In this document: positions 1,728 through 54,840 of the stretch, piece by piece
How the letters are laid out: each line of letters begins with the position of its first letter
How positions within the stretch are numbered: position 1 is the stretch's first letter
Assembly (NCBI GenBank): GCA_019352195.1
Contig: JACAFG010000001.1
Coordinates: 66,485 to 130,484 of the forward strand
DNA length: 64,000 nt
Reading direction: 5' to 3'
From: Candidatus Saccharimonadota bacterium
Lineage (GTDB): Bacteria; Patescibacteriota; Saccharimonadia; UBA4664
Position numbers and translations under genes: made by a program
The notes under the pieces: generated by a model
The model's input: the letters and a program-made list of their open reading frames with translations, nothing else
The model's database searches: none
What the model was told of the DNA's origin: nothing

Positions 1728-1803
1728 GCGCCTGTAGCTCAGGGGATAGAGCACCAGTTTCCGGTACTGGGTGTCGGGGGTTCAAATCCCTCCAGGCGCA
1801 CCA
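1728..1803 (+). tRNA. tRNA-Arg (anticodon CCG)
   Basis: Cloverleaf: acceptor GCGCCTG/CAGGCGC, D-arm GCTC..GAGC, anticodon stem CCAGT/ACTGG with loop TTCCGGT, T-arm GGGGG TTCAAAT CCCTC, 3' ACCA. 76 nt. Confidence 0.85.
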
Positions 1804-1959
1804 TTCGGCTTAGTTGCAGTAAACGATGCCACAGGCTTATAGTGAACTAATGCATTACCGTCTAAGAGTGCCGAAATTATTTGAGGGCGAAATGCCAGTC
1901 GTATCAAAGCAATTATTCCTACTTATTAATACGGCTAAGCGCCGGCCTTTGGTTGTAGG

Positions 1960-2340
1960 ATGAATATGAATCCATCAGAAGTAACGCCATTCGATGAAGT
2001 CAAGCAGTTTGAAAAACGCCAGCCAGAGGCAATTGTAGCCCTCTACTCATTTGATAATCGCTGTCGCTTCGCCTCAGCTACACATCGTACCATTCTCGGA
2101 TACTCTCAGGCTGAAATGATCGGCAAACATTGGTCTGAAGTGGTATCGCCTGAAGATCACGCGCACGCCAACCTCGCCGGTAACGACGCGGTCCTTCTAG
2201 GTCAGTCGATCGAGTTTGGCCTCCGTGTGCTTACTAAGGCGGGTGAAAGGGTGCCGTTGCGAGGCGCGGCCCGAATCCTCACCGATGCTGATAGTGATGA
2301 GTATTATTTGCTGTTTATAGCGGAAGTTGCAGCGCTTTAA
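1960..2340 (+). CDS. PAS domain-containing protein (single domain, 126 aa)
   Basis: Fold pattern typical of PAS sensors (YSFDNRCRFASATHRTILGYSQAEMIGKHWSEVVSPED ... EFGLRVLTKAGERVPL). No output domain. Confidence 0.55.
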   Translation: MNMNPSEVTPFDEVKQFEKRQPEAIVALYSFDNRCRFASATHRTILGYSQAEMIGKHWSEVVSPEDHAHANLAGNDAVLLGQSIEFGLRVLTKAGERVPLRGAARILTDADSDEYYLLFIAEVAAL

Positions 2341-2411
2341 CTCCCAATGAGCGCAACTATGGCCTTAAGCCTGAAAACTTAAGGCCATAATTTTCACTTG
2401 TACGATGGTGG

Positions 2412-2894
2412 CTAAGCCTTGGGAGTAACCGTGGGAACCGTCTTAGGAGTTGGAGTGGGTGTTGGGGTAGGCGATGGCGTTTTCGCTACTTGTGCCGTCA
2501 ACGCCGCGTTTTGCTGCGTAAGCGTCTTGTTTTGCTGCGTCAGTGTGGCATTCTGAGTCTTGAGATCGGTAATCTGTTGGCTCGTGGTACTGCTGTCGTT
2601 AGACTGCGAATTGGTCTGCCAAGCGTACACGGCGAGCCCTGCAATCAAGGCCGCGGCCAGTGCCGTAATTACAACAATGAGTGCGGCCTTAGAATCATTT
2701 TGCTTGGGCTCTGTCACCGGTGACTCGGCCGGAGTCGCGGCTGGCTCAACTGGTGTTGACGCGCTCTCGGTCGATGTCGCTGCTGACGTCTCCGGTGTCA
2801 CACCTGTAGTTTCTGGGCTCGATGCGGGCGTTACGACCGGCTCGGTCGGGGGCACGGACTGGCTAGCTGGGGGTTTGATATCCATGGTACTCAC
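2412..2894 (-). CDS. Pro/Thr/Ala-rich membrane-anchored protein with QQN coiled-coil repeats and TPTPTPTP tail
   Basis: Low-complexity N-terminus, one TM (ALIVVITALAAALIAGLAVYAW), repeats LTQQNKTLTQQNAALTAQ, C-terminal PTPTPTPTP. Confidence 0.5.
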   Translation of the reverse strand: MSTMDIKPPASQSVPPTEPVVTPASSPETTGVTPETSAATSTESASTPVEPAATPAESPVTEPKQNDSKAALIVVITALAAALIAGLAVYAWQTNSQSNDSSTTSQQITDLKTQNATLTQQNKTLTQQNAALTAQVAKTPSPTPTPTPTPKTVPTVTPKA

Positions 2895-3018
2895 TTGTAA
2901 TAATTCTAATCACCACTGTAGCAGAAGCACTTACAAAAGCCGAATAAGCGCTCACGCCATCGCGGCGCCAAGATGCCAACGCTTCAATTACGCTGAATGT
3001 GCGGTACAATGTTAGCCT

Positions 3019-3095
3019 GCGCTCGTAGCTCAGCTGGATAGAGTACTTGGCTTCGAACCAAGGGGTCGGGGGTTCGAATCCCTCCGGGCGCACCA
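3019..3095 (+). tRNA. tRNA-Arg (anticodon TCG)
   Basis: Acceptor GCGCTCG/CGGGCGC (one G-U pair), D-loop AGCTCAGCTGGATAGAGTA, anticodon stem CTTGG/CCAAG with loop CTTCGAA, T-loop GGTTCGAATCC, CCA end. Very close to the classical bacterial Arg-ACG tRNA body. 77 nt. Confidence 0.85.
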
Positions 3096-3235
3096 AAAGT
3101 TCTTATCAGCCTCCCGATCTAAAATGCCTGGCAGCCTCATTTAGCTTGCCAAACGGCTATTTTTTAGCTAGGATAATATCTGCTCAGAGCATATTGGCAC
3201 TCAGCAAAAAGCCCATACTCGTCGGTACAATTTGC

Positions 3236-3312
3236 GGGCCATTAGCTCAGTTGGTTAGAGCAGGGGACTCTTAATCCCCGTGTCCTGGGTTCGAATCCCA
3301 GATGGCCCTCCA
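3236..3312 (+). tRNA. tRNA-Lys (anticodon CTT)
   Basis: Acceptor GGGCCAT/ATGGCCC, D-loop AGCTCAGTTGGTTAGAGC, anticodon stem GGGGA/TCCCC with loop CTCTTAA, T-loop GGTTCGAATCC, CCA end. 77 nt. Confidence 0.85.
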
Positions 3313-3548
3313 GAAATTATCTGCGAATGAACGGCTCTATAAAGCCATTCGTTCGTGCTCGTAATTGATAACCCACATGTTGGCTCGGAACAAGTATCCA
3401 TACCCAGCTAAGATACCCGAGTGATGCCAGTATGAGCCGAACAACTTACCGGCCAATATGTGGGGGATATACCCGTTTGTTAGCTCAGCATAAAAAAGCG
3501 AGCTAAAATGCTTGTAACAAGTCATGGTTACGCGAACGCACCATTTTA

Positions 3549-3962
3549 ATGTATGATAATGCCATGAATAAGCCTGTAAGCAAACCAAAAAAGCATGTTC
3601 CGTTTTTTCTAAAGATCACCGCAATTATCACTGCGACCGTAATACTTATTGTTGGAATAGGCTTGATTGCAATCCGGGCAACCCCTACAAATGAGAATGC
3701 CTTCACCGGGGTAAAGTTTGACGCTGCACAACAGGCGCTAACTTACGATAAAAGTGCCTATTCGCCTGATATTGTAAGCAGTTACACAAAACAGCAAGTT
3801 GTAAGCGTAGTTCCAAGTGTTGGCAACAATGCTAAAGGAGTTGGGGTCTGTTCTACCAACCCAGGCGAGGTCGCATATTATACGGTGACAGTGAAGCGGA
3901 TCTTCTTATTTGGCACAACCTATGCCACCAAGAGCTACAATATGTGCAATTTAGCATCGTAA
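3549..3962 (+). CDS. membrane-anchored hypothetical protein (N-terminal TM, extracytoplasmic domain)
   Basis: KPKKHVPFFLKITAIITATVILIVGIGLIAI signal-anchor. An alternative ATG lies at 3563. Confidence 0.45.
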   Translation: MYDNAMNKPVSKPKKHVPFFLKITAIITATVILIVGIGLIAIRATPTNENAFTGVKFDAAQQALTYDKSAYSPDIVSSYTKQQVVSVVPSVGNNAKGVGVCSTNPGEVAYYTVTVKRIFLFGTTYATKSYNMCNLAS

Positions 3963-4040
3963 TTTCTTAACAGTCCCGACTCAACGTAGTTGATTAATTT
4001 CGGCTTGAGCAATATGATTTTGTAGTTCTCCAGCTTAAGG

Positions 4041-5708
4041 ATGGATGAAAGCACTCCGAGCATGTCGCTCGTGAATTTCCTGAAATCCGCACCTCCTACC
4101 CAGAAGAAGGCGATTAAGTTGGTAAGAAGAAGAGTACTGCTAGCCGTATTGTCTGTCATCCTCGCATGTGTTGCGCTGATTGTGCCAACTGCCGGTCAAG
4201 CGCAAGCTTCAAGCTGTACCGGCCAAACATGGCCCACGACAGGCAGCATCCAGACGTCAAACGTCGCTGGCTCCAACACGTACGATGCAACATTCGAATT
4301 TTCGCTTACCGCGGACCAGCTATGTTCGCTCCAAGCATCAGCTCCTTACTTGGAGATCGACTTCTCGCTCCACAACTTCAGTGTACCTGCAGCCTGGGAA
4401 GGGTATTCGATCGTTGATACCAATCTACCTGGGGCGATACATGACGTGGCGTACGGCGACCCAGTAAATGTAACCAGTCCGGCCACGACGCGTGTATATA
4501 CAGCACAGCTTGTGGCGGGTCACTCATACTACACCTAGTTAAATTGGACGGCTCCCGCTCAGTCCGGTACTACCCCGTACATTCAGTATGTTTGGGTTCC
4601 AAGCCGATGGATTAGCAGCTCACCTTACGAGCAGTACTCCTGCCTTGTCGCTGGCGGAAACGTGTACCCGGAAGGTGATTCCAGGAACCCTAATGAAGCG
4701 TGGTGCGTTTTTCCTATCAATGGAGACGCGGTGACGCTTTTCGGTAGCAAAACCTTCACTGGCGGGTTCCCTGGCGGCGCAATGCCGCTAGATGGATATC
4801 GCTGGTATGATTGGTTTCCGTCGATCAGCTATTCAAGTAGTAATACCGCGTTGCCAGGAACCAATCCGCCTGCACCGCCATCGCGCATAATGGTCGATAC
4901 CGGAAATAGCACTGTTTTTGCCAAAGATGGCCTCGGGAATGGAGGCTGGACTCAAGAAACGGACCCCTCAACCGCCACGAGAATAGCAGCTGGTGGCGCA
5001 ACTCAGCTTCTTACAAACTCGTGCAACCAAATCTACGCTAAAGATACGGTCGGTGTCGGAGGCTGGATACAGGAGACGGATTGCGGCGCATCACAGGCGA
5101 TTGACGTGAGCGCAACTGGTGTTCAAGTACTTTTGAACGCTTGTAACGCGGTGTACGCAAAGACTGGCATTAGCTATGGGGGATGGACCCAAGAGACGGC
5201 CTGTAATACTGCCACCGCAATAGCAGTGGGTGGAAATACCCAAATGCTTATCAACTCCTGCAATGCCGTATATGCCAAGAATACAATTGGTGTTGAAGGC
5301 TGGATACAGGAAACGCCGTGCGGAACTGCCAAAGCCATCGCTACCAGTTCGACCGGAACCCAAATGCTTATCAATGCGTGCGACGCAGTGTACGCAAAAA
5401 CAGGCATTGGGACAGATGGATGGACCCAAGAAACCGACTGCAACACTGCCAGATCAATTGCAGTCGGCGACGACACCCAAGCAGTGATAACTTTTTGCAA
5501 CGCAGTATATGTCAAGAATACAATTGGGGTTGGAGGCTGGACGCAGGAAGCCGATTGCGGAACTGCCAATCTCGTTGCGGTAGGCACTGGTGGCCGACAG
5601 GTAATCAGGACTGGCGATAATTCCGTATACGCCAAGGACACGATTGGAGTAGGTGGCTGGGGGTTACAGGCTGCAGCCGGAACGGCCATAGCAATTGATG
5701 TAGGCTAG
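4041..5708 (+). pseudogene. secreted tectonin/tachylectin-like beta-propeller repeat protein, interrupted by a single in-frame TAG at 4536-4538
   Basis: ORFs 4041..4538 and 4662..5708 are in the same frame, and translation is continuous across the TAG (…HSYYT*LNWTAPAQSGTTPYIQYVW…). N-terminus has a signal-anchor (LLAVLSVILACVALIVPTAGQAQA). C-terminus has seven tandem ~41-aa repeats (GxGGW[TI]QETDCGTAxAIAVGxxTQxLINxCNAVYAK). The downstream part has no ATG or SD of its own and would need a GTG start. Confidence 0.5.
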
Positions 5709-5767
5709 TGCAGTAAAAATCGATAATCTATGTTCGTTGGCCGGAGCTATCGCTTCTGGCTAAGGCC

Positions 5768-5810
5768 GAACCCCCGGTGTGCTTGATTGCACCGGGGGTT
5801 CATTATTTTC
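5768..5810 (+). terminator. intrinsic terminator-like GC hairpin plus T-rich tail after the repeat-protein gene
   Basis: GAACCCCCGGTG-tgcttgattg-CACCGGGGGTTC followed by ATTATTTTCC. Confidence 0.55.
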
Positions 5811-5865
5811 CAAGCAGCAGTGCCTCCGAGGTACGATCTATATCAGTTCTAACACTCAATACAAT

Positions 5866-5904
5866 GCGCCTCCATAGCACTTATGCTTAAACGACCGAAA
5901 GGTC
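5866..5904 (+). repeat. conserved intergenic box, copy A (degenerate), plus GNRA hairpin GACCGAAAGGTC and T-run
   Basis: GCGCCTCCATAGCACTTATGCTTAAACGACCGAAAGGTCGTTTTTGTTAT. Shares ...CCTCCA.AGCACTTATGCTTAA with copies B-F. Confidence 0.5.
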
Positions 5905-5924
5905 GTTTTTGTTATACTAACAAC

Positions 5925-6251
5925 ATGTACAAAATAGTCAGAAAACAGGAAGCGGCAGTACGTAAGATCTCAGAGACTTACGAAGCTCGAAACTACATCA
6001 CGAAGGATATCTCCCGATCAGTATCATTGGCCGTCAATACGGCATCGGGCCATTCTGAGCGAGAGACAACTGATTATGACCGTATCTACTATGTCATTAG
6101 TGGCGAGTTATTGATTAACATTGATGGCGAAAGCAGTGGCATTTCGACGGGCGATAGCCTACTGATCTCAAAAGGCACGATTTACGATTTTTATGGAACG
6201 TTTGAGGCGGTCGTGGTAAATCAGCCAGCTTTTGGTACATCAGTGCAGTAG
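5925..6251 (+). CDS. cupin domain protein (RmlC-like cupin fold)
   Basis: Motifs DRIYYVISGELLINIDGESSGISTGDSLLISKGTIYDFYG typical of a single-domain cupin. TATACT hexamer ends 6 nt before the ATG at 5925. The ORF track's earlier start at 5883 lies inside the conserved box. Confidence 0.55.
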   Translation: MYKIVRKQEAAVRKISETYEARNYITKDISRSVSLAVNTASGHSERETTDYDRIYYVISGELLINIDGESSGISTGDSLLISKGTIYDFYGTFEAVVVNQPAFGTSVQ

Positions 6252-6312
6252 CAACAACGCGTACGACGGCCCTCCAGCACTTATACAATAGAGACCTTCG
6301 GGTCGCTTTTGT
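6251..6312 (+). repeat. conserved intergenic box, copy B, plus UUCG-type hairpin GACCTTCGGGTC and T-run
   Basis: GCAACAACGCGTACGACGGCCCTCCAGCACTTATACAAT then GACCTTCGGGTCGCTTTTGTTAT. Confidence 0.6.
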
Positions 6313-6343
6313 TATGATGTACAAAAGATAATGGATTTAGCAT

Positions 6344-6925
6344 ATGGCTACCCGAATAATTCTTCATGGCGGAAACTCGAATATAAAGAGTGACAAGAAT
6401 GATGACTTTTATCAAGAAATCATCAGGGGCGTAGAAAAGGATAACCTTTCGGTACTGTGTGTTTACTTCGCACGTCCCGAAGCAAGATGGGAAGACTCCT
6501 ATGCCGAAGATCAATCTGTTTTTCATGCTTTGGGCATAGAGACAGGCAGAGACCTTGATACAACAATGGCAACGTACGACATGGACGAGCTGCTTGGGAG
6601 CATTGTCGAGGCTGACGTCATCTTTATCAGCGGAGGCTACAACGGGCACCTCAAGGACACCCTTCTCACAATTGGCGTCAAAAACTTTCGTCAGATGATA
6701 CAGGGCAAAACACTGGTTGGCATTAGCGCAGGAGCAAATATACTCGGTGTATATTATTATTCGCAAGGTAGCGAAGAAATTCGTGAGGGCATTGGACTGC
6801 TGAATATCAAAGTTTTGACTCACTACTCGGAAGACCAAACAAAACAGCTTGCGCTACTGAAAAGCTACAAGGAAGACATACCAACTGTTACCGTTGCCGA
6901 AGAAGAGTACGTCGTCATTCAGTAA
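6344..6925 (+). CDS. peptidase E / S51-family (cyanophycinase-like) serine peptidase
   Basis: FISGGYNGHL ... VGISAGANILG, matching the GxSAG nucleophile elbow of S51 dipeptidase E-like enzymes. 193 aa. Confidence 0.65.
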   Translation: MATRIILHGGNSNIKSDKNDDFYQEIIRGVEKDNLSVLCVYFARPEARWEDSYAEDQSVFHALGIETGRDLDTTMATYDMDELLGSIVEADVIFISGGYNGHLKDTLLTIGVKNFRQMIQGKTLVGISAGANILGVYYYSQGSEEIREGIGLLNIKVLTHYSEDQTKQLALLKSYKEDIPTVTVAEEEYVVIQ

Positions 6926-6975
6926 TTCCCTTCAACCGCAACGCGACCATGTCTGGGCGTCGTATCCGAATTGCA

Positions 6976-7035
6976 GTTGCAACAGCCAACACGATGGCCC
7001 TCCAGCACTTATGCTTAAAGACTTCTTCGGAAGTC
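6976..7035 (+). repeat. conserved intergenic box, copy C (best copy), plus hairpin GACTTCTTCGGAAGTC
   Basis: GTTGCAACAGCCAACACGATGGCCCTCCAGCACTTATGCTTAAA then GACTTCTTCGGAAGTCTTTAAGCTTTGG. Extended -10 TGGTATAAT at 7045-7053, 7 nt before the ATG at 7061. Confidence 0.65.
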
Positions 7036-7060
7036 TTTAAGCTTTGGTATAATCCTCACT

Positions 7061-7618
7061 ATGAAAGCAGACGAAATAGCCGCCTCAATCAAAAGCGCCA
7101 AAATCTCAAATAAACCAGTTTTGATTGCCATCGAAGGTTTTGGTGGGTCGGGCAAGTCAACTTTTGCGGGGCAGCTCACAGAGGCGTTGGGTGATGCCGC
7201 AGTTATCGGCATCGACGATTTTATCGTCAAAGAAAAGATGGATGAGCCAGCTTGGGAGGGTTCATTTGATTTGATGAGGCTCAAAGATGAAGTGCTAATT
7301 CCAGCAAGTCGTGGCCAAACCATCCGCTATCACAAACTCCTATGGGCAACGAATAACCTAAGCGAGGCAATCAACGTTCCCTTCGCGAGTTACCTCATCG
7401 TTGAGGGTATCTCGTCGTATCATCCAGATATTGCCGACTATTATGATTACAAAATCTGGATAGGGACACCGATCGAGGTAGCAAAAGCCAGAGGCCAAGC
7501 CAGAGATGCGGGTAACGAGAACGAATCCAAGTGGGACGTGTGGGCACAAAGTGATTTAGACTATCAGCACAAATACCATCCAGAACAAGCGGCCGATTTT
7601 ACCGTAGAGAATAAATAG
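7061..7618 (+). CDS. P-loop nucleoside/nucleotide kinase (uridine-kinase-like)
   Basis: Walker A IAIEGFGGSGKSTFAGQL at the N-terminus, 185 aa, fold size typical of AAA_18/uridine kinase-like kinases. Confidence 0.6.
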   Translation: MKADEIAASIKSAKISNKPVLIAIEGFGGSGKSTFAGQLTEALGDAAVIGIDDFIVKEKMDEPAWEGSFDLMRLKDEVLIPASRGQTIRYHKLLWATNNLSEAINVPFASYLIVEGISSYHPDIADYYDYKIWIGTPIEVAKARGQARDAGNENESKWDVWAQSDLDYQHKYHPEQAADFTVENK

Positions 7619-7635
7619 TACCGTCTCCAACTTCG

Positions 7636-7700
7636 GTAGCAACAAGCTTCAAGATGGCCCTCCAATACGGTTATGCTTAACCAGAGATTTTGCATCTCTG
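7636..7700 (+). repeat. conserved intergenic box, copy D, plus 7-bp hairpin CAGAGATTTTGCATCTCTG and T7 run
   Basis: GTAGCAACAAGCTTCAAGATGGCCCTCCAATACGGTTATGCTTAAC then CAGAGATTTTGCATCTCTGTTTTTTGTTTATAAT. The TATAAT ends 6 nt before the ATG at 7722. Confidence 0.6.
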
Positions 7701-7721
7701 TTTTTTGTTTATAATGAATCA

Positions 7722-8420
7722 ATGCAACTGAAGACGGTCACTTGGAATATCGGTGGGGGTAAATATCTCAAAGCGGGTGCGGACCCGCTATTGTTGTCCT
7801 CATATTCTGTTGATGCAATATCCAATATAGCTGATTGACTCAAAGCAAGTGGCGCGGACATTATTGCGATTCAAGAAGCTCAAGCGGATAGTAATAGCAA
7901 TCAAGTTGAAGAAATCGCTAAATTGATCGATTTCAAGTATCACAACTTTGATGCAACGTCGAGCTCACATATCGATGAGAACAAACAACTCGGTAATGGT
8001 ATTATCTCAAAATATCCGATTAGTGAACACAGTCATGGTCTATTCCTTAACCCAAATATAGAGGCAGAGCGACAAGGAAAAATAATTAAGACCCACGACA
8101 AGGGTTTTGGTAAATGTTTTATTAATTTTGGCGAAAAAAGTGTTGAAGCTGCCGCACTTCATTTAATTCCATTTCAAACATTTAATATCGATTTGAGCTC
8201 TGAGAAGGGGAGAGAGATATTGTCGAGCGTCACGCAGAAAATTGGCGTATCAAATAAGTATTCTCTCGTAATGGGCGACTTCAACATCGACAGCCCGACT
8301 ATCAGCGAGTATTTACCTAAATTCTTTAATCTTAGTGGCGTTAAAGAGATAACTCTTGATGAACCGACAATTCCATCAGGGAAACAATACGATCATGTCA
8401 TATACAGGGCTTTAATCTGA
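7722..8420 (+). pseudogene. endonuclease/exonuclease/phosphatase (EEP) family protein with in-frame TGA at 7836-7838
   Basis: From ATG 7722: MQLKTVTWNIGGGKYLKAGADPLLLSSYSVDAISNIAD*LKASGADIIAIQEAQADSNSN…, continuing in the same frame into ORF 7923..8420 (…LVMGDFNIDSP…). This has the EEP hallmarks: WNI.G N-terminal motif, D[IV]I.[IL]QE catalytic Glu, GDFN. TGA is a genuine stop elsewhere in the window. Confidence 0.5.
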
Positions 8421-8493
8421 ATAAAATTGAGATAGATAATTCGGTTAAGACGGATCACTACCCGGTATTCTGTAGCTTTACTGTTTTGGCATA

Positions 8494-8535
8494 GTTGCAA
8501 CAGCGAGCACGATGGCCTTCGATAGTACTTATACC
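8494..8535 (+). repeat. conserved intergenic box, copy E (no obvious hairpin)
   Basis: GTTGCAACAGCGAGCACGATGGCCTTCGATAGTACTTATACC. A TATAAT at 8575-8580 ends 5 nt before the ATG at 8586. Confidence 0.55.
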
Positions 8536-8585
8536 TATCCATTATCCCTTGTTGATTCAGCCAGCATAAGAACTATAATCACATC

Positions 8586-9698
8586 ATGGCCACAACTGCA
8601 GTCTCCCTGCGCAGCTATAAGTCGAATTTTTCTGGAATACCGGGCTATATAGCGGGACTCCCTTCATACCCCAGAAATTTCAGTCGGGATACTTTCCTGG
8701 CCGGTATTCTAGCGATGGACAAAGACCTGTTAAGAACCCAAATCATACTGGCCGCAAATCATCAGGGAACGGGCTATGACGCGGCGACTGGAGAGGAGGC
8801 AGGCAAAGTTCATCACGAGTATCCTGGTGTTAAGCTGGCAGGACGGGGAGACTATGTAACTACCTATAACGCTTGCGACACGACCGCTTTATTCTTGCTT
8901 GCAATCGAGGCCCTTGGGCAGTTGGACGAATGCTCTTATGCCGAAATTATCGCTGGTTACCAACGTAATATCGTCTTGGCAGTGTCATATATTCTGCGGC
9001 ATGTTAAGACTAATATTTTTTATGAGTATCCACCTGATGACGCCGACCACTTTGCTCTCAAGGTAACCTACTGGAAGGACTCTATCGCCCCAGACCCTTT
9101 GGCTAGTGAGCTCTGCTACCCGGTTGCCTATGCTCTAGCGCACTTTCAAGCAGCTCGTGGCCTACTGAGCGCCGCACGTATTCTGCGAACCCCGGGCTTG
9201 CTTGAGGCCGCAGACGTCATGTTTAAGACGGGTATTCGTAAGTTCTTGCGCCCAGCACAATTCGTGGTGGCTACGGGGCATCGATTTCAATTGGCGCAAC
9301 CTTCTTCGGATGAGTTGCACAGCCTGGCATACATTCCGCAAAAGTATGGCCACTTGTTGCCGCTAGAAGCAATCGAGCAACGGTCGAAAGGATTGTTTAC
9401 GTCCGTTGGGCTTGCCTGTACGCCCGAAAGTATCGCTACCTTGCTCGATGATCCGTACCATGGCTATGTAGTATGGCCTTTTGAGCAAGCCTTTATCCAT
9501 TATGGCTCAGCCAAATTCAATTTACCTTCGTGTGCTGACTTGGCCAAACGGATAGTGCCTTTCATAGCTCAAGGGAACGAGCTCATTGGGGTAAAGCCGA
9601 AAATAGAGCCGAGGGGGAATAGCCACCAACTTTGGTCAGTTGCTGCCGGTATCTACTTCGATGGTTATTCGAGTTTACGCGATAACCCATGGCTATAA
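8586..9698 (+). CDS. six-hairpin glycosidase-like protein (amylo-alpha-1,6-glucosidase / glycogen-debranching C-terminal domain-like)
   Basis: HEYPGVKLAGRGDYVTTYNACDTTALFLLAIEALGQL resembles the conserved Y..aDaT.LF core of the GDE_C/GH63-like (alpha/alpha)6 barrel. 370 aa, no signal peptide. Confidence 0.45.
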   Translation: MATTAVSLRSYKSNFSGIPGYIAGLPSYPRNFSRDTFLAGILAMDKDLLRTQIILAANHQGTGYDAATGEEAGKVHHEYPGVKLAGRGDYVTTYNACDTTALFLLAIEALGQLDECSYAEIIAGYQRNIVLAVSYILRHVKTNIFYEYPPDDADHFALKVTYWKDSIAPDPLASELCYPVAYALAHFQAARGLLSAARILRTPGLLEAADVMFKTGIRKFLRPAQFVVATGHRFQLAQPSSDELHSLAYIPQKYGHLLPLEAIEQRSKGLFTSVGLACTPESIATLLDDPYHGYVVWPFEQAFIHYGSAKFNLPSCADLAKRIVPFIAQGNELIGVKPKIEPRGNSHQLWSVAAGIYFDGYSSLRDNPWL

Positions 9699-9719
9699 GA
9701 ATTTGATTTAGCTATTTTC

Positions 9720-9790
9720 GTTGCAACAGCCAGCACGATGGCCCTCCAGGAATCATCCGCAAAATAACGGCTTCATAGAGCCGTTATTTT
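9720..9790 (+). repeat. conserved intergenic box, copy F, plus hairpin CGGCTTCATAGAGCCG and T-run
   Basis: GTTGCAACAGCCAGCACGATGGCCCTCCAGGAATCATCC ... ACGGCTTCATAGAGCCGTTATTTTGTTAT. A TATACT at 9831-9836 ends 6 nt before the ATG at 9843. Confidence 0.6.
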
Positions 9791-9842
9791 GTTATTATCT
9801 TTTCTCACTTGTTAATAAAAATTGAAATTCTATACTTCTTGC

Positions 9843-10355
9843 ATGAAGAAAAGTATCACACAAGAATCAAACTATGGATGCGGTACAGTCTGCTTTGCCT
9901 TTGCGGCCGATCTCGCGTTTCTCTATATTTTATTTGCCGTCACTATGGCAAATTTCGTCGCTCAGATTCCGTACTACCTGCATCAGTATTATCTGACATC
10001 GCATACTGCGCCGAGTCCGCTTGGCCTCGTGCTGATGGGTGGAGTATTGGCATGGTTTTTGATTGGGTATCATGGGCTCGCGCGTTACCAGAAATATGGT
10101 TACATCCTCGTACTAAGCTTCTTGAGCGTAGAATTCCTGTTTTATTTGCAAACTCAAATTGCCCAATACCTCAGTGGTCATGGCATATTCCTTTATGTTA
10201 GCTCACCTCATAGCTTGATTCTGTTTATTGTCTTTGGCGTTGGATATATCAACTTTATCGCCTCTGCCTGGTTTATTTACGAGTTGTTGCGTCATGCAAG
10301 AAGCTTTGTGGGTGATGCGGCACTGCCACTCTCGAAGCGTATTACTAAGTCCTAA
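9843..10355 (+). CDS. polytopic membrane protein (hypothetical)
   Basis: About 5 TM helices. ATG at 9843 preferred over the TTG at 9822. Confidence 0.55.
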   Translation: MKKSITQESNYGCGTVCFAFAADLAFLYILFAVTMANFVAQIPYYLHQYYLTSHTAPSPLGLVLMGGVLAWFLIGYHGLARYQKYGYILVLSFLSVEFLFYLQTQIAQYLSGHGIFLYVSSPHSLILFIVFGVGYINFIASAWFIYELLRHARSFVGDAALPLSKRITKS

Positions 10356-10452
10356 CAGGCCGTATTACATTAGCCTTAAGTGACATAGATCACGGTAAAG
10401 CTTAAGCATAAGTGTTATGGTTAGCTCAATTTAAGAGGCTAGAGCGCACTGT

Positions 10453-11906: not shown

Positions 11907-12140
11907 ATGGCCACCGCCCAACGTACCGCACTCGATAACGCCAGCACCGGAGCCTTTTACTTAACCGTCATTTCGGCCGTGCTCGGTGGCATATTTTGGC
12001 TAAGTTCATACTTTGTTTCGGGTCACGCCAATATTATCCAAATTGCGACGGGTATTTTCGCGGGTATGACGGCAACCGGCGGTCTGATTATGGGCTTACT
12101 TTACATCTCGCGCCTGGTTCAAAAGAAGCAAAACCCCTAA
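11907..12140 (+). CDS. small membrane protein (2 TM, 77 aa)
   Basis: Two hydrophobic helices. Position is plausible but there is no motif. Confidence 0.4.
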   Translation: MATAQRTALDNASTGAFYLTVISAVLGGIFWLSSYFVSGHANIIQIATGIFAGMTATGGLIMGLLYISRLVQKKQNP

Positions 12141-12154
12141 CCGAACGGCCGCGT

Positions 12155-12730
12155 ATGGAGACATTAGACAGCCTCGAGATAAGCTTGTTTGAAGACAACG
12201 CCTGGCATGCGTGGCTTGAGCAAAATCATACCCAAAACAAAGGTTTGTGGCTCAAGATAAGTAAAAAAGGCTCTGTGTATCCGTCAATTTCGTATGCAGA
12301 CGCTCTCAATGAAGCGTTGTGCTACGGCTGGATCGACGGCCAAAAACAGGCCTACGACGACGGCTACTATCTTCAGAAATTTACCCCGCGCCGAAGTAAA
12401 AGTGTCTGGTCTAAGATCAATGTCAGTCATATCGAGCGGCTTGTGTCCGCTGGCCGCATGCAGCCGTCGGGTTTGGCCGCTGTCGAACCCGCCAAAGCCG
12501 ACGGCTGTTGGGACGCCGCCTACGACGGCGCGCGCAGTATCAAAATGTCGCCCGAATTTGAGGCGGCACTAGCGGCAAGCCCAAAAGCCAAAGCGTTTTA
12601 TAATTCGCTTGATCGGTCTAACACCTACGCCTACTTGTGGCGCCTGCAAACCACCACTAACCCCACCAACCGCGCGCTCAAAATGAAGCAGTTTATCGGC
12701 ATGCTCGAACGCGGCGAGCGGCTCCACTAA
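12155..12730 (+). CDS. YdeI/OmpD-associated (OmdA) family protein
   Basis: AWHAWLEQNH…GLWLKISKKGS…ISYADALNEALCYGWIDGQKQAYDDGYYLQKFTPRRSKSVWSKIN…LVSAGRMQPSGL is characteristic of the bacteriocin-protection YdeI/OmdA family. Start at ATG 12155, not the overlapping TTG at 11996. Confidence 0.65.
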   Translation: METLDSLEISLFEDNAWHAWLEQNHTQNKGLWLKISKKGSVYPSISYADALNEALCYGWIDGQKQAYDDGYYLQKFTPRRSKSVWSKINVSHIERLVSAGRMQPSGLAAVEPAKADGCWDAAYDGARSIKMSPEFEAALAASPKAKAFYNSLDRSNTYAYLWRLQTTTNPTNRALKMKQFIGMLERGERLH

Positions 12731-48497: not shown

Positions 48498-48536
48498 CTT
48501 ATGCTAGACTAAAGACAACTAAGCATAAGGGTTACC

Positions 48537-54773: not shown

Positions 54774-54840
54774 CCCAAGTAATTGCTGAAACATGTCAAT
54801 ACGCTTATGCTTAAGCCCATAAATTCTCGAGGCATTCACC

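Follow-up and report, generated by a model that had tools for sequence, protein, structure and literature searches.

The 64,000-nt stretch of contig JACAFG010000001.1 analyzed here (the window) belongs to the genome of a member of the Saccharibacteria (Candidatus Saccharimonadota bacterium, assembly GCA_019352195.1) and carries an array of small unrelated genes, lined up behind a tRNA-Lys gene and separated by a 29-nt repeated element, hereafter the box. The box (consensus GTTGCAACAGC-NNN-CACGATGGCCCTCCA) is present in six copies, all on the + strand, starting at positions 5846, 6248, 6976, 7636, 8494 and 9720 (boxes A to F). Its last 12 nt, GATGGCCCTCCA, are identical to positions 3301-3312, i.e., the 3' end of the tRNA-Lys(CTT) gene (3236-3312, + strand; ARAGORN, Rfam at 70.2 bits and motif search), and correspond to the acceptor 3' strand, the discriminator base and the CCA. 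Because the core of the box equals the end of this tRNA, the array was considered to begin at the tRNA-Lys gene, its anchor and the analogue of an attB or attI site, and to comprise seven units. A preliminary description of this DNA had set the beginning of the array at 5860, omitting both the link with tRNA-Lys and the first unit, which starts at 3313. The remaining part of the box, or left arm, aligned with the tRNA body with a score no better than that of shuffled sequences, and the idea of the box as a decayed tRNA 3' half was rejected.

A repeat finder grouped five of the copies (6248, 6976, 7636, 8494 and 9720) as a single family. Box A (5846-5874) is a complete copy with a diverged sequence, GTTCTAACACTCAATACAATGCGCCTCCA, that agrees with box C at 21 of 29 positions. 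Hence, the same element in six consecutive intergenic regions, as reported in the preliminary description, was verified from the sequence and, for five copies, by the repeat finder, the diverged copy placed there at 5866 being in fact a full box that begins further upstream. Besides, the repeat had been given a length of about 40 nt, whereas conservation is limited to the 29-nt left part; the adjoining “CACTTATGCTTAA” stretch belongs to a separate and variable right-hand module. When the 30-mer consensus was searched with at most three mismatches, two occurrences were found in the window for 0.00 expected (100 shuffles, none), and the mismatch scan revealed no further box elsewhere in the 64 kb. 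Beyond 10360, isolated copies of the right-hand motif were found and no box. The array has a GC content of 43–47%, compared to ~52% in its flanks, in line with the lower value noted earlier. Two short palindromes, GTTGCAAC and GCATGC, lie within the box. No support was found for the tiny upstream open reading frames (ORFs) that a conserved sequence of the box had been proposed to open in copies C and D.

Unit 0 (3313-5845; unless stated otherwise, features are on the + strand) contains three ORFs (3549-3962, 4041-4538 and 4662-5708) and a terminator (5768-5801), as seen from sequence, Pfam and a terminator scan. Its first element, GAAATTATCTGCGAATGAACGGCTCTATAAAGCCATTCGTT, is a hairpin module akin to that found after box F. 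The third ORF encodes a 348-aa protein without Pfam match, in which at least three tandem 237-nt (79-aa) repeats (4887-5569, 61–74% identity) are recognized and which resembles a repeat- or propeller-type surface protein; in locus L009, the first unit behind tRNA-Lys likewise encodes a large repeat protein, NHL-like by eye. After box A, the right-hand module of unit 1 (TAGCACTTATGCTTAA, 5875-5924) includes a hairpin (5889-5908) with a T-run and an extended -10 sequence (TGtTATACT, 5910-5918; sequence, fold and terminator scan), followed by a cupin gene (5925-6251, Pfam Cupin_2) whose TAG stop codon is located inside box B (6248-6276). The public call starts this gene at ATG 5883, within the repeat motif ATGCTTAA and 5' of the terminator hairpin. 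Judging from the layout of the sequence, the in-frame ATG at 5925, 6 nt past TATACT, is likely the more plausible start, and the cupin mRNA would then be leaderless. Unit 2 (6277-7004) carries a peptidase S51 gene (6344-6925, Pfam) and box C (6976-7004). In unit 3, the right-hand module GCACTTATGCTTAA (7005-7060), with a 13-bp hairpin (7013-7042) and a TGgTATAAT sequence (7045-7053) situated 7 nt before ATG 7061, precedes the gene of a P-loop, uridine-kinase-like kinase (7061-7618, Pfam PRK) and box D (7636-7664).

A hairpin (7682-7700) and a TATAAT hexamer (7710-7715) are then found ahead of an endonuclease/exonuclease/phosphatase pseudogene (7722-8493; Pfam, terminator scan). As stated in the preliminary description, one gene of the array is thus disrupted: codon 39 is an in-frame TGA and the reading frame shifts near 8400, while the original stop codon TAG (8491-8493) abuts box E (8494-8522), the core of which is degraded to GATGGCCTTCGA and is not followed by a hairpin. 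The next gene (8586-9698, 370 aa), previously called glycosidase-like, has no Pfam match and is preceded by its own promoter (TTGATT, 8552-8557, and TATAAT, 8574-8579). Box F (9720-9748) is the last detectable box. The terminal unit (9749-10355) is composed of a hairpin module (15-bp stem, 9759-9792), a TATACT hexamer (9831-9836) and a membrane-protein gene (9843-10355). Together with its box, this module is 88% identical over 76 nt to the sequence at the last box of L018; the module after a degenerate box of L009 is similar to it as well. Outside the detectable array, an OmdA/YdeI-like gene (11996-12730) is 55% identical to a boxed cassette gene of L029 and L022. An inverted copy of the right-hand motif, CCATAACACTTATGCTTAA (10402-10420, - strand, 95% complementary to 5872-5890), may be a relic boundary, and the region from 10360 to ~13200 may consist of old cassettes with decayed boxes.

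Downstream of the boxes, a hairpin and a T-run were detected after A, C, D and F by the terminator scan and after B by folding, with stems of 4 to 15 bp. The hairpin and T-run announced after each box in the preliminary description therefore occur at five of the six, box E being devoid of them, and the stems are not restricted to the 4–7 bp then indicated. The TATAAT-like hexamer that it had noted shortly before the start codon was retrieved at boxes A, C, D, E and F, where it ends 6–7 nt 5' of the ATG, and no Shine-Dalgarno sequence is present at the genes following these five boxes.

The box was then searched in other genomes, as the preliminary description had called for. A scan with a degenerate pattern over one genome per species returned 13 loci, of which nine are from metagenome-assembled genomes of Saccharibacteria or Patescibacteria; the four others fit the consensus poorly and look like chance matches. 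A stricter scan of metagenome contigs added 17 further loci. In total, the box was found in ~25 other Saccharibacteria loci (9 genome + 17 metagenome), which likewise consist of arrays of unrelated small genes, and the pattern matched a single locus per species genome. According to a profile search, these loci hold 63 box copies (58 unique), the largest arrays having up to nine boxes (L029) or five (L001 and L012). The cross-species consensus, (c)TTGAATTT(tn)-GTTGCAACAGCATGCACGATGGCCCTCCA, is made of two conserved blocks around variable positions 10–15. In all 13 loci with a tRNA-Lys gene in reach (12 CTT, 1 TTT), this gene lies upstream on the same strand as the boxes, and the conserved gene located 5' of the tRNA in several loci is FolD. 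The order of tRNA genes in the window (1728-3312), Arg(CCG), Arg(TCG) and Lys(CTT), is the same in L009 (UBA5147), whose tRNA-Lys sequence is identical to that of the window, and the Arg(TCG)-Lys(CTT) pair only was seen in L018 and L021.

Across loci, 46 units measure 153–3617 nt from site to site (median 703 nt), with 45 ORFs on the strand of the boxes vs. 16 on the opposite strand. Such spacing between boxes, occupied by complete genes, differs from that of clustered regularly interspaced short palindromic repeats, in which ~30-nt repeats alternate with 25–50-nt spacers. The boxes do not behave either as miniature inverted-repeat transposable elements or repetitive extragenic palindromes, as no dispersed copies were found (one locus per genome), all copies are direct and a palindromic body is absent. 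The cargo includes cupin, peptidase S51, kinase, nuclease, GH63-like hydrolase, methyltransferases and a cation efflux protein, as well as an ABC transporter, UDG, RibD_C, and ArsR and PadR regulators. Five toxin-antitoxin pairs were also recognized in cassettes, namely ParE (twice), RelB/YafQ, Phd/YoeB and PIN. At L030 (10343-10425), the box core is part of a long perfect palindrome (…CGATGGCCCTCCATATTAATAACACCTAC…GTAGGTGTTATTAATATGGAGGGCCATCG…) made with the DNA following it, so that the core is faced by a second, inverted copy of itself.

The kinase of unit 3 has 296 homologs, with 55–66% identity among the matches listed, which belong to Saccharimonadales or Saccharibacteria wherever the source is named. 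In seven other genomes, no box lies near these homologs, whose surroundings are ordinary or belong to other accessory DNA. The group's general accessory pool thus supplies the cassette genes. One of these box-free accessory regions (L035) contains a toxin-antitoxin cluster (2603-4991; BrnA, PIN/MazE, PIN/Phd) ~5 kb from the kinase homolog. The peptidase S51 and kinase genes are adjacent in L033 too; an ancestral operon split by a box was considered and rejected, since the S51 proteins are 24% identical vs. 62% for the kinases, and the adjacency is coincidental.

Comparison of the junctions across loci showed that the DNA located 3' of the CCA falls into a few recurring classes. In the commonest one, nnCGCTTATGCTTAA is followed by a hairpin and a T-run, then by TGnTAnnnT and the ATG. 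In a second class, the same 11-mer is inverted, and a third class consists of a conserved hairpin, AAATAACGGCT...AGCCGTTATTTTG, found after box F and after the tRNA in the window and after boxes in L018 and L009. A -10-like hexamer ending 4–9 nt before the ATG was counted at 34 of the 48 junctions followed by an ORF, compared to 18 of the 61 window genes outside the array. The hexamer is TG-extended in 23 of these 34 junctions (7/61 outside the array), while a Shine-Dalgarno-like sequence precedes 3/48 junction ORFs vs. 13/61 window genes outside the array. Therefore, each cassette brings along a terminator of its own and a promoter positioned as for leaderless translation. The right-hand motif CTTATGCTT is also intergenic outside the array, at 48498/48521 (48498-48530) and at 54804 (54800-54814); 3' of the phosphoglycerate kinase gene, a copy of this motif and an inverted one together make up a terminator-like hairpin. 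The motif may be a word of general use in the terminators or intergenic DNA of this genome.

The arrays bear marks of cassette movement whose limits coincide with the core. In 10 of the 13 loci, the CCA of the tRNA is directly followed by the motif that most often follows boxes, which makes the tRNA junction equivalent to the box junctions. Between genomes, homology ends exactly at the ...CCTCCA core. This is illustrated by L002 and L007, whose core genes are ~80% identical: 112 nt are 100% identical up to CCTCCAA, ~3.5 kb are then unrelated, and synteny returns at 80%. Similarly, the downstream core genes of L024 and L025 have 66–79% nucleotide identity while, inside the arrays, boxes are all that is common. 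Conversely, some cassettes recur in different arrays. A ParE pair common to L001 and L028 has 79–85% aa identity vs. 50–60% for FolD, and an OmdA-like gene common to L029 and L022 has 90.6% nucleotide identity, the homology of the cassette beginning at the core. For both pairs of loci, high identity extends from the core through the right-hand module into the gene, while the sequences 5' of the core are unrelated or far less similar. An ABC pair (L029/L002) and a RibD_C gene (L029/L008) also recur. The acceptor strands of the tRNAs vary by lineage (CCTGGCCC, GATGGCCC, TGGGCCC), whereas boxes always have GATGGCCC; hence, the crossover between tRNA and box would take place within or after (T)GGCCCTCCA. 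The TAGCACTTATGCTTAA sequence located after box A in the window is found, unchanged, right after tRNA-Lys in the sister genomes L009 and L018, and the window tRNA, unlike theirs, is directly followed by the start of unit 0. This junction fits a recent insertion of unit 0 at the tRNA core, with older units pushed outward, and from the order of the sequence unit 0 is probably the latest insertion beside the tRNA.

As the preliminary description had envisaged recombination sites in the style of attC, the copies were aligned and folded. The RNAalifold consensus (-0.18 kcal/mol) indicates no conserved fold of the box, no complementary covariation was detected by mutual information among the 58 unique copies, and Rfam returned tRNAs only, with no match for the box. 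The individual folds show terminators only, and the hairpins after the boxes are A-tract/T-tract terminators of unrelated sequence. The attC-like fold was consequently rejected, no inverted-repeat structure being present and sequence rather than structure being conserved. A coding role of the box was rejected too: a synonymous-looking frame (GCA/GCG/GCT, TCT/AGC) failed an entropy test, positions 10–15 varying at all codon positions. Symmetry of the dif/Xer or terminal-inverted-repeat type was discarded, the resemblance being weak, in the variable part of the box, and of variable spacing. Read from the sequence, the 11-nt arms inverted around a 6-nt center of Xer/dif sites are lacking; only TTATGCTTAA resembles a XerD arm, at 3 to 7 nt from the CCA, the opposite arm being the tRNA end.

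The genes found upstream of the arrays are tRNAs, FolD, a DUF975 protein and a PAS protein, and include no XerD-like recombinase; the conserved 267-aa gene 5' of the tRNA, first a candidate, is FolD. A fragment of an insertion sequence-type transposase, with a C-terminus resembling an integrase core (rve-like), was seen by eye in L001 (6395-6870), past the last degraded box and in this locus only. In L037, where no box or tRNA is present, a large serine recombinase (1-1605; Resolvase, Recombinase and Zn_ribbon_recom domains) stands at the edge of a run of small accessory genes, all in one direction, among which is a homolog of the window kinase. Serine recombinases of this type exist in the group and could be candidates for cassette movement. 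Elsewhere in the window, two-component systems are unusually dense for a small genome (23700-25435, 27946-29346, 33247-35801 and 39054-40801), with two pairs of OmpR-type regulator and kinase, one CHASE3 kinase, and a 7TM kinase accompanied by a receiver protein.

Because related genomes keep the same layout with different genes, the locus looks like an integron-style capture site, though one with no recombinase gene found beside it. The anatomy of the array, its conservation across genomes, the sharing of cassettes between arrays and the breakpoints at the core were all observed. The explanation that we favor for them, with a probability of roughly two in three, is the tandem site-specific integration of small integrase-less cassettes at the 3' end of tRNA-Lys by a recombinase acting in trans. 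We infer that the cassette passes through a circular intermediate, and that the crossover is catalyzed by a recombinase whose gene lies in another part of the genome or is carried by a visiting element. According to this scheme, each circular cassette would carry a single composite site, in which the 29-nt box, i.e., the left arm plus a 9–12-nt core (tRNA acceptor 3' strand, discriminator base and CCA), would be joined to a right-hand module whose commonest form is nnCGCTTATGCTTAA, a terminator hairpin with a T-run, and an extended -10 sequence 6–7 nt before the ATG. Recombination of this composite site with the core of the tRNA or of a resident box would insert the cassette and leave one box behind it, so that successive insertions would stack cassettes behind the tRNA. 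Since the crossover would occur within or after (T)GGCCCTCCA, the tRNA would stay intact, and because its own terminator and leaderless promoter come along, a cassette would be expressed at any position. The cassette array with recombination sites put forward in the preliminary description is thereby upheld by the ~25 other loci, the shared cassettes and the breakpoints at the core.

Several observations weigh against this explanation. No recombinase, including Phage_integrase, was found by Pfam among the ~70 ORFs of the window, and none was found beside the other arrays in 20 ORFs analyzed by Pfam and 10 ORFs by eye only. The box does not have the inverted symmetry usual for the core sites of tyrosine or serine recombinases. 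Two scans of viral contigs and BLAST searches of phage and plasmid collections did not retrieve the box, and a phage or plasmid as carrier of the site was set aside on these empty searches. No circular cassette contig was seen among the loci. Finally, the downstream box of the cassette shared by L029 and L022 is 68% identical vs. 90% for its gene. Simple excision and integration do not predict such divergence, which needs box exchange or gene conversion; boxes would thus also be exchanged or converted among themselves.

The best surviving alternative, which we nevertheless regard as unlikely, is that boxes are portable stretches of homology, with cassettes swapped between arrays, after natural DNA uptake, by RecA-type exchange in the conserved tRNA-Lys gene, the boxes of 29 nt and the core genes alongside. 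It is consistent with the lack of a recombinase linked to any array checked, fits the breakpoints at the box edge equally well, and finds support in the uncoupling of the downstream box from its gene in L029/L022, suggestive of exchange within boxes. Moreover, a demonstration of natural transformation in Saccharibacteria has been reported (PMC10633639). However, homologous exchange reshuffles existing arrays and cannot make one box per inserted gene, it leaves the ending of the box in the last 9–12 nt of the tRNA unexplained, and 29 nt with a variable middle are very short for efficient homologous recombination. Box-to-box homologous exchange after natural transformation probably contributes, more likely as an additional process than as the source of the arrays.

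Still less likely, the arrays could be the debris of successive full-size elements targeting tRNA-Lys (prophages, integrative and conjugative elements, ICEs, or integrative and mobilizable elements, IMEs) which had their own integrases and decayed to att-flanked remnants. Precedents exist in streptococci, in which tandem accretion at the 3' end of tRNA-Lys involves integrase-less, att-flanked remnants (PMC5704250), and in Prochlorococcus, whose islands contain partial-tRNA repeats (10.1101/2020.12.28.424599). On the other hand, the 46 units have a median size of 0.7 kb and mostly consist of a single intact gene under its own promoter, neither an integrase nor a fragment of one was found in the cassette ORFs screened (Pfam; 10 by eye), the left arm, which is not derived from the tRNA, is conserved over many species, and the same small cassettes recur as discrete units across arrays.

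Least probable of all is a regulatory or RNA module (a 3' untranslated signal for stability or processing that mimics a tRNA 3' end, or an operator) spread locally like a miniature repeat: although the box always lies between stop codon and terminator and is hence transcribed, CTTATGCTT is present in further intergenic regions of the window, and the palindromes may suggest protein binding, such a module lacks any conserved fold, covariation or Rfam match, fails to account for the breakpoints at the core between genomes or for the kinase homologs that do without a box in seven other genomes and, like the operator, UP-element or leader with attenuator of the preliminary description, does not explain why the last nucleotides of the box are those of tRNA-Lys, nor why each genome has it at one locus only, invariably behind that tRNA and in a single orientation.

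Tandem integration of cassettes at tRNA-Lys was then compared with known systems. As in chromosomal integrons and clusters of attC sites lacking integron-integrases (CALINs), the array is one-directional, with small, mostly single-gene cassettes of ~0.7 kb and unrelated functions, including toxin-antitoxin cassettes, some of them reversed. One repeat stands behind each cassette, fairly uniform within an array as are the repeats of Vibrio (VCRs), the entry point is fixed at one end, and, as in CALINs, no integrase lies nearby. The small single-gene cassettes with one site each, typical of integrons, are found in the seven window units and in the 46 units of all loci (median 703 nt). Unlike integrons, the repeat is linear and 29 nt long, without the R''/L''-L'/R' hairpin of attC, and a tRNA gene, by its 3' end, serves as entry point instead of an attI site beside intI. 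No IntI gene was found adjacent to the array, and promoterless cassettes read from a common Pc promoter are replaced here by cassettes having each their own terminator and leaderless-type promoter. The pdif (Xer) modules of Acinetobacter plasmids contain one or two genes, often toxin-antitoxin, between ~28-bp sites, their recombinase being encoded elsewhere; each pdif site is an imperfect palindrome of 11-6-11 layout, and successive sites alternate in orientation, whereas the box has no such symmetry and all its copies are direct repeats.

With the tycheposons (10.1101/2020.12.28.424599) and the streptococcal accretion of ICEs, IMEs and cis-mobilizable elements (CIMEs; PMC5704250), the array has in common insertion at the 3' end of a tRNA gene without damage to the tRNA, stacked units separated by direct repeats of that end, and newer units pushing older ones away from the tRNA; like CIMEs, its units are integrase-less and att-flanked. 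Indeed, an intact tRNA at one end and repeats of its 3' end (9–12-nt core), as in tRNA-associated islands, were observed in 13 loci, while the integrase of such islands, or its remains, was missing from the cassette ORFs screened. The units are 10–100 times smaller than those of tycheposons or CIME accretions, no integrase, replication or transfer module was found in any of them, and the tRNA segment is just 9–12 nt long and joined to a non-tRNA arm conserved across many species. The rAID-1 clusters of Bacteroidales, described as integron-like, similarly group low-GC, co-directional, small orphan genes with a repeated intergenic motif, but are defined by a 5' gene for a XerD-like recombinase and carry immunity genes (10.1101/471110); here, no adjacent recombinase was found, a tRNA serves as anchor and the cargo consists of general accessory genes. 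From this comparison, the closest system in its working is the chromosomal integron or CALIN, and the closest in the logic of its att site is tRNA-targeted tandem accretion. The array lacks some of the defining features of each of these systems, integrons, tRNA-targeting elements and rAID-1. It is possible, and we advance it tentatively, that it represents a gene-capture platform evolved apart from integrons, with entry at the tRNA-Lys 3' end, an unstructured 29-nt site, self-expressed cassettes and a remote recombinase, possibly of a family without prior link to cassette capture. Full-text literature searches yielded no published description of the array, which is not proof that none exists.

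Saccharibacteria have genomes of ~1 Mb and depend on host bacteria. To our knowledge, little is understood of the way in which they acquire and lose accessory genes. A fixed site at which small, ready-to-express genes are stacked and exchanged would offer a definite locus for studying gene flow among them, and the 29-nt box is a simple handle for mining its mobile gene pool from metagenomes. The site could also be a natural landing pad for genetic work. More generally, these arrays would show that an integron-like organization is possible on a tRNA attachment site without hairpin attC sites or an adjacent integrase. If they are indeed a separate capture platform, they would be a main route by which these epibionts with tiny genomes trade accessory genes.

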